Assembly (NCBI GenBank): GCA_965204745.1
Contig: OZ242010.1
Span: forward strand, 4,352,001-4,416,000
Source of the DNA: Candidatus Latescibacterota bacterium
GTDB lineage: Bacteria; Latescibacterota; UBA2968
Direction of reading: 5' to 3'
Length of the DNA stretch: 64,000 bases
Shown piece after piece: positions 10,846 through 33,641 of the stretch (positions are counted from its first letter, which is position 1; every line of letters begins with the position of its first letter). Made by a program: the position numbers and the translations under genes. Below the pieces are notes generated by a model that was not told the DNA's origin, searched no databases, and saw only the letters and a list, made by a program, of their open reading frames with translations.

Positions 10846-11028
10846 TCAGGTCGCGCCCATATCGCCTCCGCGCGCAACGGCTTTGAGGCCCGCTGGTTTG
10901 TGTCGCGCGTTGGAGATGAGTTGGTCTATGCGATCCTGAAGGGTCTTAATGTCTTGCTCGAAGGCGTCGAGTTCTTTGACGAGATCGTCAAAATCGAGCC
11001 TAATCGCGGTGGCTTTCCTCAAACCCAT
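10846..11028 (-). CDS. Small coiled-coil hypothetical protein (60 aa)
   Basis: AAAGGA RBS; heptad pattern LVKELDAFEQDIKTLQDRIDQLI. Confidence 0.6.
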   Translation of the reverse strand: MGLRKATAIRLDFDDLVKELDAFEQDIKTLQDRIDQLISNARHKPAGLKAVARGGDMGAT

Positions 11029-11206
11029 TGCAGTTCCTTTCTGATACGGGATGGCATCAGGGGAGAGAGGGGAAGTTTGGGAAAGGGGAGTGGGAATATA
11101 GGACAAGGCGCGGGCGGCGTCAAGGGGGATTAGCCAACAGCGCGTCAATTTGTTCCCGCGTGGGCATGGCGGGTTGCAACATCCCCCGCTTAATCCGAAA
11201 ACGCGG

Positions 11207-11235
11207 TTGACTTTTGCCCTCGCATGCGGTATATT
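11207..11235 (+). promoter_or_regulatory. Sigma70-type promoter
   Basis: TTGACT-17 bp-TATATT. Confidence 0.75.
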
Positions 11236-11239
11236 GGGG

Positions 11240-11490
11240 GCACACGAGAAAGGAGGTGGTCGAATGAGTGACATGACCAGTGGAGGTGACTGTCGTTAGG
11301 TGCGCCCGCCAGGAGCGGAGACAGCATCTCGAAATGGTAGCGCGCCTGGCAATCCAACACAGTCATCGAGCGGTTCGTTATCTGCCACATCGGCGATTTT
11401 GATGATCGCGAGGCAGAAACGCCGTCAGACGAAGCGCCGCACGGAGATGGGTTGATTTTTCGACATCCGCCGCGCGGCGTTTTTTGTTGG
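11240..11490 (+). ncRNA. Candidate structured RNA / sORF-bearing transcript (sORF 11264-11299, MSDMTSGGDCR)
   Basis: Own promoter and terminator, no long ORF, several complementary segments, two SD-like motifs. Family not recognised. Confidence 0.5.
11432..11486 (+). terminator. Intrinsic terminator
   Basis: AAGCGCCGCACGG...CCGCGCGGCGTTTTTT. Confidence 0.6.
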
Positions 11491-11499
11491 CTTTCTAAC

Positions 11500-11527
11500 T
11501 TGACAAAATTGGATTATCCTGTACCTT
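11500..11527 (+). promoter_or_regulatory. rplM operon promoter
   Basis: TTGACA-16 bp-TACCTT. Confidence 0.6.
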
Positions 11528-11579
11528 CAAAAACTCCATTGCCCACAACACACATCGAGTTAAGCGAGGAATTGAAACG

Positions 11580-12011
11580 ATGAGGACACCGAGTGCAAAA
11601 AAAGGTGATGTCGAACAAGTCTGGTATGTCGCCGATGCAGAAGGCAAGGTGCTCGGGCGATTTGCCAGTGGCGTAGCTCGGATTTTGCGCGGCAAACACA
11701 AGCCCTTTTACACGCCCCACATTGACGCGGGGGATCACGTGGTGATCGTCAATGCGGAGAAAATTCGGGTCAAGGGCAATAACAAAGCCCGGCAAAAGGT
11801 TTATACGAGTTACAGCGGGTATCCCGGCGGGCTGAAAAAGCAGACGCTGGAAGACGCGCTCGAAAAGCGACCCGCATTTGTTCTCGAGCACGCGATTCGG
11901 GGCATGTTGCCCCACAACAAATTGGGCCGGCAAATGATGAAAAAGGTCCGGATTTACGCCGGCCCGGAACACCCACACCGCGCTCAGTCTCCCGAGCCAA
12001 TCGATTTGTAG
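11580..12011 (+). CDS. rplM: 50S ribosomal protein L13
   Basis: WYVADAEGKVLGR, LRGKHKPFYTPHIDAGD, YSGYPGG and GMLPHNKLGR motifs. Confidence 0.98.
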   Translation: MRTPSAKKGDVEQVWYVADAEGKVLGRFASGVARILRGKHKPFYTPHIDAGDHVVIVNAEKIRVKGNNKARQKVYTSYSGYPGGLKKQTLEDALEKRPAFVLEHAIRGMLPHNKLGRQMMKKVRIYAGPEHPHRAQSPEPIDL

Positions 12012-12066
12012 AGGAGTTAACGTCTTGTATATTGTTGACTATTGTTGTTTATTTATCGTGTTGTCT

Positions 12067-12654
12067 ATGGCGTATGTAAATACTCGCAAAGCGGTTGCTT
12101 TGCTTGGCGTTCATCCGAGCACATTGCGTAGGTGGGCGACTGACGGTCGGATTGAGCACATTCGTAGTCCGGGTGGTCGGAGGCTTTACAATGTCGATGC
12201 GTTCTTGCGGGAAGAAGTTGGGGTTGTGTGCTATGCACGGGTCAGCAGTTATGCCGAAAAAGACGACTTGCGAGGGCAAGTTGCACTCTTGCGATCCCGT
12301 TATCCCGAAGCAGAGATCGTCAAAGACATTGGGGGAGGTCTCAACGGGAAGCGGAAAGGCCTTGTTGCCCTACTGGAACGCTTACACAGCGGAGAGAAGT
12401 TGCGAATTGTGGTTGCCCACAAAGACCGTCTTGCAAGGTTCGGCTTTGAACTTATTGACTGGCTGGCAAAGCAAAACGGGGGCGCGGTCATGGTTCTCGA
12501 CGAGTCAAGTTGCAGTCCGGAACAAGAACTCACGCAGGATATTCTGTCCATTCTCGATTCGTTCTCTTGTCGGCTGTACGGACTCCGCAAGTATCGTGAC
12601 AAAATCGAAAAAGATAAGACTCTCTCTGACAAGCGAGCAGAAGGCGTTGGTTAA
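12067..12654 (+). CDS. tnpA: IS607 transposase TnpA (MerR-like HTH + serine recombinase)
   Basis: LLGVHPSTLRRW, SPGGRRLY, CYARVSS (catalytic Ser), HKDRLARFGF and SCRLYGLR motifs. Confidence 0.93.
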   Translation: MAYVNTRKAVALLGVHPSTLRRWATDGRIEHIRSPGGRRLYNVDAFLREEVGVVCYARVSSYAEKDDLRGQVALLRSRYPEAEIVKDIGGGLNGKRKGLVALLERLHSGEKLRIVVAHKDRLARFGFELIDWLAKQNGGAVMVLDESSCSPEQELTQDILSILDSFSCRLYGLRKYRDKIEKDKTLSDKRAEGVG

Positions 12655-13738
12655 GGTCTGGTTGGCAGGTAGCCGTTGGTGGTATAACGAGGCCGTGTCG
12701 TTGTATCGTGCGGGATTTTCCGTATCCGAGTATGAGATGCGTGCTCTTGTTCGTGCGGTGAGTCCTGAGTGGTTTGCGGATGTTCCGAGCAAGATATTGT
12801 GCGGTGCGATAGCAGATGCTCACAAAGCGAATCAGGCCGTCTGGCGTAAGCGGAAAGCGTTGAAGAAGAAAGGGATAAAGCGGAAAGTGATGCTCCATTT
12901 TCGCAGTCGTAAATGTCCTGTTCAGTCCTTGTATTTGTGCCATGTGGCGTGGAACAAGGCATTGACGACATTTTATCCGCGTCGTCTTGGCAATGTTCAT
13001 CTCTGCGAATCATTGTCTGTTGTTCCGAAGGATGGTCGTTTGGTCCGTCACAATGGGCGTTACTATGTGACGGTTCCCTATTCAAGTCCACGGCGCGTAA
13101 CCGAGAACCAAGGGCGCGTCGTGGCACTTGATCCAGGTATTCGCAGTTTCTTGACGTTCTATTCCGAGAAGGATTGTGGTAAGATTGGCGAAGGTGATTT
13201 TGGTCGTATTCAGCGTTTGTGCGTTCATCTTGACGGGTTGATCGGTCGCATGACAAAGGCTATCGGATTTCGCAAGGTGCGTTTGAAGCGTGCCTGCCAT
13301 CGCATGCGGTGGCGCATCCGAGATTTGATAGATGAACTACACAAACAGACGGCTCGCTGGTTGGTGGACAACTACGATGTGATTCTGTTGCCCACGTTTG
13401 AAACGCAGGATATGGTACAGCGTGGCAAGCGTTGCCTTCGTCGTAAATCTGTTCGCAGTATGTTGACCTTCGCCCATTACCGCTTCAAGCAGTTTTTGAA
13501 GCACAAAGCATTTGAGACAGGCAAGTTGGTCTTCGATGTGAATGAGGCATACACGTCCAAAACAGTCAGTTGGACAGGCGAGCGTGTGAAGAACTTGGGC
13601 GGTGCTAAGGTCATTCGCAGTCGGATAGATGGTCAAGTAATGGATCGAGATCTAAATGGCGCACGGGGTATTTTTCTCCGTGCTTTGGGCGATACACCCA
13701 AGTTGCGCAACTGCTTGGATGCAACTTGCACTGGTTGA
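12596..13738 (+). CDS. tnpB: RNA-guided endonuclease TnpB (IS607 type)
   Basis: RuvC-I ALDPGIRSF, ILLPTFE, NEAYTSKT, RuvC-III DRDLNGARGI. Start GTG 12596 is a best guess; the frame is open from 12095. Confidence 0.9.
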   Translation: MTKSKKIRLSLTSEQKALVKVWLAGSRWWYNEAVSLYRAGFSVSEYEMRALVRAVSPEWFADVPSKILCGAIADAHKANQAVWRKRKALKKKGIKRKVMLHFRSRKCPVQSLYLCHVAWNKALTTFYPRRLGNVHLCESLSVVPKDGRLVRHNGRYYVTVPYSSPRRVTENQGRVVALDPGIRSFLTFYSEKDCGKIGEGDFGRIQRLCVHLDGLIGRMTKAIGFRKVRLKRACHRMRWRIRDLIDELHKQTARWLVDNYDVILLPTFETQDMVQRGKRCLRRKSVRSMLTFAHYRFKQFLKHKAFETGKLVFDVNEAYTSKTVSWTGERVKNLGGAKVIRSRIDGQVMDRDLNGARGIFLRALGDTPKLRNCLDATCTG

Positions 13739-13802
13739 ACACTTATTGACGAGTCAATAATGGTCAACAGAAAGGTATCAGGTGATATTTTGGCTATTGA
13801 AC
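13670..13802 (+). ncRNA. Putative omegaRNA (right-end scaffold plus a guide from the rpsI 5' flank)
   Basis: Position at the tnpB 3' end/right end; hairpins TTGGGCGATACACCCAA and TTATTGAC-GA-GTCAATAA. Boundaries inferred from known TnpB systems. Confidence 0.55.
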
Positions 13803-14185
13803 CCTTGAGTTCTGCCACCGGGCGGCGCAAGACCTCGACCGCGCATGTGAAACTCTATCCCGGCACGGGCGCGATCACCATCAACGGGCATTCCGCCGCC
13901 GATTATCTCAAGCGAGAGACGTTGGTGATGATCATCGAACAGCCCTTAGACGTGACCGAGACCCGCGGCACCTATGACATTGTCGCCAAAGCAAAAGGGG
14001 GCGGTTTGACCGGTCAGGCCGGCGCCGTGCGATTGGGCATCGCGCGCAGTTTGCAGCGCGTGAACGAGGCCAATCACCAACCCCTTCGCGGCGCGGGATT
14101 GCTCACGCGCGACCCGCGCAAGGTGGAGCGCAAAAAGCCCGGGCAACCCGGCGCACGCAAAAAATTCCAGTTTTCCAAGCGTTGA
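13790..14185 (+). CDS. rpsI: 30S ribosomal protein S9
   Basis: [28 protein letters not shown] and FQFSKR motifs; TTG start after AGGTGA. Confidence 0.97.
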
Positions 14186-33568: not shown

Positions 33569-33641
33569 TGCGCCCACAGGGAATCGAACCCCGAACCTAC
33601 TGATTAAGAGTCAGTTGCTCTACCAGTTGAGCTATGGGCGC
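33569..33641 (-). tRNA. tRNA-Lys(CTT), CCA not encoded
   Basis: GCGCCCATAGCTCAACTGGTAGAGCAACTGACT-CTT-AATCAGTAGGTTCGGGGTTCGATTCCCTGTGGGCGCA. Confidence 0.97.

Follow-up and report, generated by a model that had tools for sequence, protein, structure and literature searches.

Within a window of 64,000 nucleotides (nt) from a Candidatus Latescibacterota bacterium (GenBank assembly GCA_965204745.1, contig OZ242010.1, positions 4,352,001 to 4,416,000 of the forward strand; all coordinates below count from the first letter of this window), the stretch 11207-11490, upstream of rplM, holds the gene of a structured small RNA (sRNA) with an internal open reading frame (ORF) of 11 codons. We consider it somewhat better than an even chance that this is a free-standing RNA of the Ms_IGR-5 type (Rfam RF02471), which would act through being bound and translated, and neither through the encoded peptide nor as a leader of rplM. 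The unit had been noticed in a preliminary description of this DNA; that observation is confirmed, and all the motifs listed in it are present where they had been placed.

Complementarity to the 16S rRNA tail and the mini-ORF

The 5' part of the RNA carries a first Shine-Dalgarno (SD) motif, GAAAGGAGGTGGTC, at 11248-11261. The genome has a single 16S ribosomal RNA (rRNA) gene, which ends in ...GGATCACCTCCTTTCT (...GGCTGGATCACCTCCTTTCT). The stretch AGAAAGGAGGTGGTC (11247-11261, + strand) can form 15 contiguous pairs with the last 15 bases of this tail (14 Watson-Crick and one G-U), as anticipated when the first motif was described as closely complementary to the 16S 3' end. The complementarity stops where the 16S match defined by Rfam ends (ACACG upstream of 11247, versus AGGGAG... 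in the 16S spacer). Positions 11247-11256 are within a large one-sided 5' bulge (11246-11256) between two helices, P0 and P1, while 11257-11261 belong to P1 as its 5' strand. In 12 of 70 aligned sequences, an A replaces a G in P1 and the partner C has become U; pairing with the 16S U is kept in either variant.

Among the 3647 long ORFs of this genome, none has upstream of a candidate start a run complementary to the 16S tail longer than 12 nt, a length that two ORFs reach. A complementarity of 15 nt is found at four sites of the genome, namely the 16S antisense, this RNA, an ordinary gene start with AGAAAGGAGGTGATC, and a G-U-rich site. Across the family, a census of 137 distinct sequences from 150 loci gave a contiguous complementarity of 15-23 nt (mode 17, G-U allowed) in 137/137 sequences, on the assumption of an identical 16S tail in each of them.

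The mini-ORF, MSDMTSGGDCR, extends over 11 codons from the ATG at 11264 to the TAG ending at 11299 (+ strand). Along its length lie the 3' strands of P1 and of P0, then the 5' strand of a long-range helix, P2, and its stop codon is in the 5' strand of a further helix, P3. A second SD-like motif, GGAGGTGA at 11283-11290, lies inside P2; both the ORF and this motif are as first described.

The search pattern behind the census contained neither a start nor a stop codon. A stop triplet occurs 3-8 nt past the P2 5' strand in all 137 sequences. An in-frame ATG, GTG, or TTG, located 3-16 nt after AAGGAGG with no intervening stop, is present in 129/137, versus 5 and 27 in the other two frames; when only ATG is counted, these figures become 74 in frame, and 1 and 7 in the other two. 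The ORF has 11 codons in 32 sequences, 12 in 89, and 13-17 in the remaining 8. Among the 129, the stop codon is TAG in 108 (including all 20 sequences of the window's frame group), TGA in 14, and TAA in 7, while TAG ends 795 of the 3647 long ORFs of the genome (22%). The dominance of TAG in the mini-ORF may reflect either the pairing of P3 or a preference for RF1.

Relative to an invariant GAGGUG, three reading frames are used, giving peptides that end in ..EVAAR (106 sequences), ..SGGGCR (20 sequences), or ..NQRWLL (three sequences). The ..SGGGCR group is made of the window lineage plus an Eisenbacteria metagenome-assembled genome (MAG); for the ..NQRWLL group, two loci are titled Planctomycetota and the third is untitled. 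In the window lineage, a 1-nt difference in the joint between P2 and P3 shifted the frame of the stop, and the start shifted along with it. The mini-ORF is kept in all 20 distinct sequences of this lineage, with residues 2-4 varying freely. Since different lineages use three different frames, the peptide is not conserved. The comparison of nucleotide- and peptide-level conservation that had been suggested for this locus is, therefore, clear in its outcome: the structure and the frame boundaries are kept, and the peptide is not. Selection appears to act on an open frame of fixed length, from the P1 loop to P3, rather than on the peptide.

Conserved fold

As judged from the alignments, the conserved core consists of P0, the large purine bulge, the hairpin P1, the long-range helix P2, and P3 (all on the + strand). 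RNAalifold, run on a MAFFT alignment of 70 sequences (A1), recovered P2 alone; P0, P1, and P3 were defined by eye and then tested. The family helices submitted to these tests were CACN/NGUG (P0), GGUCC/GGAC (P1), GGUGGCUGC/GCAGUCACC (P2), and GCUAGC/GCUGGC (base of P3). In A1, 90.9% of the alignment cells are paired, versus 27-47% when the partners are slid, 8/24 pairs are changed on both sides, and the covariation is 0.224, versus 0.124 after shuffling (0/500). A model-fitted alignment of 100 sequences (A3), which leans toward the structure used to fit it, gave 91.6% of cells paired (23-53% slid), 13/24 pairs changed on both sides, and a covariation of 0.285 versus 0.132 (0/500). Within the order, 13 sequences (A2) were tested with the window's full structure of 54 pairs; 96.9% of cells are paired (28-46% slid), 18/54 pairs are changed on both sides, and the covariation is 0.300 versus 0.184 (0/500).

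P0 (11243-11282), formed by CAC 11243-11245 with GTG 11280-11282, encloses the SD bulge and P1 in one domain. Across phyla, 3/4 of its pairs are changed on both sides and 95% of the cells are paired. The hairpin P1 (11257-11279) pairs TGGTC 11257-11261 with GACCA 11275-11279 and has the start codon in its loop; 94.9-100% of its cells are paired, with G-C to A-U exchanges. P2 (11285-11367), which contains the second SD-like motif, pairs GGTGACTGT at 11285-11293 with ACAGTCATC at 11359-11367, and shows 93-97% of cells paired with A-U, G-C, and G-U exchanges. P3 and its variable apical insert occupy 11295-11350; the helix has 11 base pairs (11295-11305 with 11340-11350) and carries the stop TAG (11297-11299) in its 5' strand. 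Within the order, 99.3% of its cells are paired; across phyla this figure is 84%, with 5/6 pairs changed on both sides. The joint from P3 to the 3' strand of P2 (11351-11358) is unpaired and reads AATCCAAC, for a family consensus of GCGAAUCC, the A, A, and C columns of which are nearly invariant in the 70-sequence alignment.

Past the core and the terminator, no conserved domain was found, as the 3' parts differ between lineages. The window lineage has its own hairpin, P4 (11381-11417), with an outer stem TCTGCC 11381-11386 / GGCAGA 11412-11417 and an inner stem GCGAT 11393-11397 / ATCGC 11405-11409. In 13 relatives, 100% and 95% of their cells are paired, and 4/6 and 4/5 of their pairs, respectively, are changed on both sides; the outer stem of the terminator has 5/10 such pairs in the same alignment (A2). 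Two of the pairings proposed in the preliminary description are, thus, retained with compensatory changes, namely TGACTGT/ACAGTCA, which belongs to P2, and TCTGCC/GGCAGA, which is P4. The third, GCCAGG/CCTGGC, is not the best-supported partnership: CCTGGC (11345-11350) pairs instead with GTTAGG (11295-11300) inside P3, in all lineages.

Relationship to the Ms_IGR-5 family

Ms_IGR-5 was reportedly first described by Li et al., in 2013, in Mycobacterium smegmatis. It is represented in Rfam by RF02471 ("Actinobacteria sRNA"). At gathering thresholds, the sRNA region has no Rfam match, and the sole match in the whole window, for tRNA as well as transfer-messenger RNA (tmRNA) classes, is a tRNA gene at 33569-33641 (− strand). 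At E values up to 10, the region 11100-11620 matches only RF02471 and, by chance, a microRNA model on the terminator. The match to RF02471 has an E value of 1.9e-7 and aligns all 184 model positions (1-184) to 11242-11445; with 39.0 bits, it remains below the curated gathering cut-off of 45 bits.

RF02471 gives exactly one site in 51 of 61 relatives (29/30, 21/22, 0/5, and 0/3 per taxonomic family). The cut-off is exceeded in 1/61, and all 20 genus-level relatives score 37-41 bits. Two conserved motifs were also scanned over a species-level genome collection, yielding at least 120 loci, 80 of which were shown with titles. Among the matches listed, most are Actinomycetota (Mycobacterium, Streptomyces, Micromonospora, Nocardioides, and others). 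The other titles listed are Pyrinomonadaceae, Blastocatellia, and Terriglobales (all Acidobacteriota), Planctomycetota, Candidatus Latescibacterota, Candidatus Eisenbacteria, a Syntrophobacter MAG, and a Heliobacteriaceae MAG. Two loci titled Candidatus Latescibacterota (L108, whose L13 protein is 90% identical to that of the window and places the window's organism in this group, and L071) are MAGs and close kin of the window, so that the range of the RNA is wider than the actinobacterial one implied by the family name.

When 16 of the loci were rerun in Rfam, 12 matched RF02471 at E values up to 0.01, and four (L054, L096, L107, and L121) had no match at this threshold. Actinobacterial loci score 95-185 bits, one Blastocatellia and one Acidimicrobiales locus 49-50 bits, the kin of the window 30-39 bits, and others 28-42 bits. 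The resulting series (185, 111, 50, 42, 39, and 28 bits) is a continuum without a gap, and the undisputed members, with 95-185 bits, align with the window lineage in A1 and A3, sharing the same core.

A covariance model built from 70 diverse sequences across phyla (R1) scores 70.1 bits on the window (11238-11371), its sole match in this genome, and gives one match each in five genomes of other phyla. R1 is biased to its seed phyla and was applied with stricter filters above 40 genomes, so that its phylum counts are lower bounds: 53/151 sampled genomes of the window's phylum (29/29 and 18/19 in its own order, 2/64 and 0/13 elsewhere), 57/121 Actinomycetota (six of these genomes being flagged as unpublished), and 10/101 Acidobacteriota. 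In the Actinomycetota sample, G181 stands out as the only searched genome with a second R1 match; its two matches score 62 and 53 bits and are located on separate contigs. Corynebacterium glutamicum, a control genome, has no RF02471 match.

On the strength of these alignments, the RNA is best seen as a distant member or variant of the Ms_IGR-5 family, a catalogued and uncharacterised family, and not as a wholly new class. It had first been held to be unassignable to any family. This does not stand, given a full-length alignment just under the cut-off and the intermediates that link it to members scoring 95-185 bits. The Rfam comparison called for in the preliminary description, which had named a hit to a known family as the outcome counting against it, did return no match at the gathering threshold; by that same rule, the sub-threshold link to RF02471 means that the RNA is not wholly new.

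The likeness to Ms_IGR-5 covers the order of the elements (ACAC, AAGGAGGUGGUC, hairpin, GAGGUGGCUG, stop, insert, GAAUCC, CAGUCACC, and 3' hairpin), the free-standing unit present in a single copy per genome, and the mini-ORF, which is found in true members too. Unlike these members, the window RNA has its ORF in another frame as the result of a 1-nt shift, an additional hairpin (P4), a classical terminator with a T-run, and rplM as its neighbour. RNA-seq has validated Ms_IGR-5 as an expressed sRNA of S. lividans (PMC8079986), in S. avermitilis it forms an sRNA transcription unit of its own (PMC8780764), and significant ribosome-profiling reads have been found on the M. abscessus and M. smegmatis homologues (PMC4974804). 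The literature searched, with supplements outside its scope, assigns no function to Ms_IGR-5 and describes no ORF in it.

Proposed mode of action

The RNA most likely functions by engaging ribosomes, because its only conserved features are those that concern ribosome entry, passage, and exit. A 30S subunit would dock by forming, with the exposed bulge, an SD/anti-SD duplex of unusual length, which would invade P1 and, in so doing, free the start codon. The ribosome would then translate the mini-ORF, unzipping P0, P2, and P3 on its way; with 33-36 nt from start to stop, the ORF would accommodate one ribosome at once. Upon termination, the RNA would refold and the cycle could repeat. Candidate roles for such an RNA are a decoy or buffer of free ribosomes, or a sensor of translation capacity, and the cell might benefit by titrating or protecting the anti-SD tail, or by sensing translation capacity.

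A ribosome-engaging RNA, either translation-coupled or dual-function, had already been put forward in the preliminary description. This idea is strengthened by the 15-17-nt complementarity to the 16S tail, the 129/137 in-frame starts, the use of three frames, and the ribosome footprints on the mycobacterial homologues (PMC4974804). The specific roles offered with it, a 30S sponge or a switch, are candidates; what has to be given up, in view of RF02471, is the accompanying idea of an unassignable RNA.

Several observations weigh against the reading as a ribosome-engaging RNA of the Ms_IGR-5 type. Its RF02471 score is below the family threshold. Twelve of the 16S-complementary bases are fixed by the search pattern, and their conservation in its 120 loci is, thus, by construction. 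The genomic site with AGAAAGGAGGTGATC (G000:C1 ~585040-585061, − strand, outside the window) precedes an ordinary 80-codon ORF (MQSGRVAFTFDERSLDALEDM...), and a long SD alone is, therefore, not diagnostic. Eight of the 137 sequences, of the Acidimicrobiia type, have only CTG at the start position. P0 is only 3 base pairs long in the window lineage, and is invariant within the order. A pure sponge would need no ORF, no output domain is visible, and the physiological role is a guess. Lastly, much of the ORF overlaps nucleotides that are conserved for structure, and the conservation of the frame may be partly a by-product of this overlap, an explanation against which the three-frame result and the control on the other frames both argue.

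Transcription unit and neighbouring genes

The promoter of the sRNA (11207-11235, + strand) consists of a −35 hexamer TTGACT (11207-11212), a 17-nt spacer, and a −10 hexamer TATATT (11230-11235). It reaches 10/12 matches in a consensus scan, which found three promoter-like sites in the region versus 0.8 expected. Both hexamers are invariant in 13/13 relatives of the order (A2), and the near-consensus promoter proposed at the outset is, thus, upheld. The predicted transcript of ~244 nt (11242-11485, + strand) is delimited by the RF02471 alignment (11242-11445), the R1 alignment (11238-11371), and conservation; its 5' end is deduced from the position of the −10 hexamer together with the onset of conservation and of the model match, and its 3' end is taken as the T-run. 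The segment 11243-11480 folds better than 200/200 shuffles (z = −2.5).

The intrinsic terminator (11434-11485, + strand) is a long G+C-rich hairpin (11434-11480) followed by T6 (11480-11485). As had been proposed, it is present: the hairpin is part of the minimum-energy fold, and relatives keep it with compensatory changes and with a T-run after it (13/13). A simple terminator scan did not list it on the + strand, because the hairpin loop is long. Outside the RNA, rplM-rpsI has a separate promoter (11499-11527, + strand), with CTTGACA at 11499-11505, a 16-nt spacer, and TACCTT at 11522-11527. In the 13 relatives, CTTGACA is invariant and is followed 16-17 nt downstream by TAYYYT, while the flanking sequence has diverged, in agreement with the earlier statement that rplM has its own promoter. 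The conservation in relatives to which the preliminary description had tied its reading is likewise found, as promoter, helices, and terminator are all kept in the 13 relatives of the order. The sRNA gene, thus, appears as a free-standing, single-copy unit with its own promoter and terminator, after which rplM has a promoter of its own.

Two longer ORFs that overlap the unit, one of 51 amino acids (11300-11455, + strand) and one of 66 amino acids (11190-11390, − strand), were rejected, since 1- and 2-nt indels fall inside both among close relatives. A small divergent ORF of ~60 codons (MGLRKATAIRLDFDDLVKEL...) lies at 10846-11031 (− strand), preceded by a promoter-like TTGACG-17-TATATT (11123-11095, − strand) and by an SD, AAAGGAAC; it has no Pfam match. 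The listed 142-amino-acid ORF at 10846-11274, which covers the start of the sRNA, is probably this shorter divergent gene extended by chance.

Downstream, rplM (11580-12011, + strand) and rpsI (13760-14185, + strand) match Pfam Ribosomal_L13 and Ribosomal_S9, respectively. The two genes are split in the window by an IS607-type pair (12025-13738, + strand), made of a serine recombinase with a MerR-type helix-turn-helix (12025-12654) and a TnpB/Cas12f-like ORF within 12095-13738. As rpsI lies within ~10 nt of rplM in relatives, this pair is a recent insertion that split the operon. Some relatives (L010, L026, L028, L029, L004, L027, and L030) have a hairpin-forming insert of 30-40 nt between the SD of rplM (GAGAGGAGGTGA) and its start codon (A2 columns ~565-600). 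This insert is absent from the window, and it could bring the SD and the start of rplM together.

In the relatives, rplM-rpsI follows the RNA on the same strand in 28/30 loci. Outside the lineage, among the matches listed, rplM is downstream in 2/80 long-flank loci from other genomes, both of them Latescibacterota kin; another 40 loci have flanks too short to be informative on this point. Pfam analysis of 115 flanking ORFs at 17 diverse loci gave no recurrent neighbour family, the neighbours being unrelated to each other (PAS, PMSR, MFS, ABC, aminotransferases, and DAHP synthase, among others). The adjacency to rplM, therefore, looks like a lineage-specific accident or co-option, and not like a property of the family.

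Alternative explanations

A trans-acting, base-pairing sRNA is an unlikely alternative. The joint GCGAAUCC or the anti-SD-like strand GCAGUCACC would bind target mRNAs, and the mini-ORF would be incidental, stabilising, or seed-gating, as in a dual-function or translation-gated sRNA. In favour of this, the gene is free-standing with variable neighbours, Rfam files RF02471 as 'Gene; sRNA', and the joint, which is unpaired, hardly varies; in addition, the 3' strand of P2 resembles the 16S anti-SD and could pair with SD regions once freed. This model, however, needs neither the complement of the 16S tail nor the ORF boundaries, which together make up the most conserved bases, and the seed regions of sRNAs are seldom conserved over five or more phyla.

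The RNA could also act as an antisense to the 16S 3' tail outside translation. It would then either keep 3' exonucleases away from the tail in idle 30S subunits, or guide or limit 3'-end maturation. The extent of the complementarity would suit this role: it runs to the end of the 16S match as delimited by Rfam and not into the spacer, and in most sequences (mode 17) it goes just 1-2 bases into helix 45. As for context, HPF is reported to protect S. aureus ribosomes from RNase R (PMC8406268), and RNA contacts of the 3' extension of E. coli pre-16S have been described (bioRxiv 10.1101/2025.09.11.675593). An antisense of this kind is, nevertheless, quite improbable, as it accounts neither for the conserved in-frame start and stop, nor for the ribosome footprints on homologues reported in PMC4974804.

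A cis-acting leader or attenuator of rplM-rpsI, under feedback from L13, S9, or ribosome availability, is disfavoured, and we hold it to be very doubtful. Ribosomal-protein operons are often under the control of structured leaders, and in 28/30 loci of relatives rplM-rpsI comes directly after the RNA on the same strand; read-through of the terminator is possible in principle. However, a conserved terminator with its T-run and a separate promoter with an invariant CTTGACA intervene, and the stop codon, 135 nt before the terminator, is too distant for direct coupling. Moreover, the L13 leader RF00555 is not among the Rfam matches at E values up to 10 (11100-11620), and the leader hypothesis does not fit the distribution of the RNA elsewhere, with rplM downstream in just those two loci of window kin among the 80 listed with long flanks, and unrelated neighbours at the 17 diverse loci.

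An ordinary gene for a functional 11-residue peptide is extremely improbable: the strong SD, the canonical and well-spaced ATG, and the ORF kept in 20/20 distinct sequences of the lineage would suit it, but the peptide is wholly different between lineages (..EVAAR, ..SGGGCR, and ..NQRWLL), its residues 2-4 are free to vary within the lineage, and compensatory changes preserve the RNA structure in which the ORF is embedded.

Comparison with known RNAs and implications

If the RNA acts by being translated, it invites comparison with 6S RNA (and the actinobacterial Ms1), by analogy only: 6S RNA mimics an open promoter, and this RNA would mimic a translation initiation region. Both would be abundant housekeeping RNAs posing as the natural substrate of a machine, the abundance and the housekeeping role being carried over here by analogy. 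6S RNA is released when RNA polymerase copies from it a short product (pRNA) of irrelevant sequence. The short ORF, with its irrelevant peptide, would play the part of pRNA. The two differ in the machine involved (RNA polymerase versus the ribosome) and have no relation in sequence or structure, 6S RNA giving no Rfam match here at E values up to 10. A speculative, and rather unlikely, extension of the analogy makes this RNA the ribosome counterpart of 6S RNA, that is, a housekeeping decoy that would capture free 30S subunits by forming a duplex of 15-17 nt with the whole anti-SD tail, and would release the ribosome only upon translation of its 11-12-codon ORF. Capture would shield the anti-SD tail and withdraw SD-dependent initiation capacity, and the ORF would serve solely to open the decoy, in the way that 6S RNA is opened by the synthesis of pRNA.

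Other known systems share single traits with this RNA. The L13_leader of Firmicutes (RF00555) and the L13-controlled rplM leader of E. coli precede rplM-rpsI on the same strand, as this RNA does in its order; they differ in that no such model matches here, a terminator and a second promoter intervene, and the family is unlinked to rplM elsewhere. Dual-function sRNAs (SgrS/SgrT, RNAIII/hld, and SR1/SR1P) likewise have a short translated ORF within a regulatory RNA, but they encode conserved peptides, whereas the mini-ORF is read in three frames. With leader-peptide attenuators (trpL, ermCL, and the mycobacterial Cys-rich sORFs), the common trait would be that the act of translation matters and not the peptide. 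Attenuators regulate a downstream gene in the same transcript, while this RNA has no consistent neighbour at the 17 loci, its own terminator, and a second promoter after it. Similarly to tmRNA, it would be a stable, structured RNA in which ribosomes read a short internal ORF, but it has no tRNA-like domain as judged with Rfam, and ribosomes would enter it by way of an SD and a start codon. In the literature searched on anti-SD- or 30S-sequestering sRNAs, no such RNA is described in the titles and abstracts, and no housekeeping RNA class working through its own translation turned up in the literature searched.

Ms_IGR-5 has so far been catalogued as an actinobacterial sRNA of unknown function. 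To this can now be added that the same RNA, one copy per genome and with a core supported by covariation, occurs in at least five other phylum-level groups, that its 5' part matches the entire free 16S tail, and that the boundaries of its mini-ORF, and not the peptide, appear to be under selection. The spread across phyla, the 16S match, and the selected ORF boundaries together point to an RNA that would work through being translated. As far as the literature searches go, three features had not been described before, namely the occurrence across phyla, the match to the full 16S tail, and a mini-ORF that does not depend on one frame. For annotation, the conserved "non-coding" unit that precedes rplM in this lineage is thereby explained, and it would not be a ribosomal-protein leader. 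If the 6S-like reading were true, this RNA would serve soil-type bacteria of several phyla as a buffer of idle ribosomes, or as a sensor of them.

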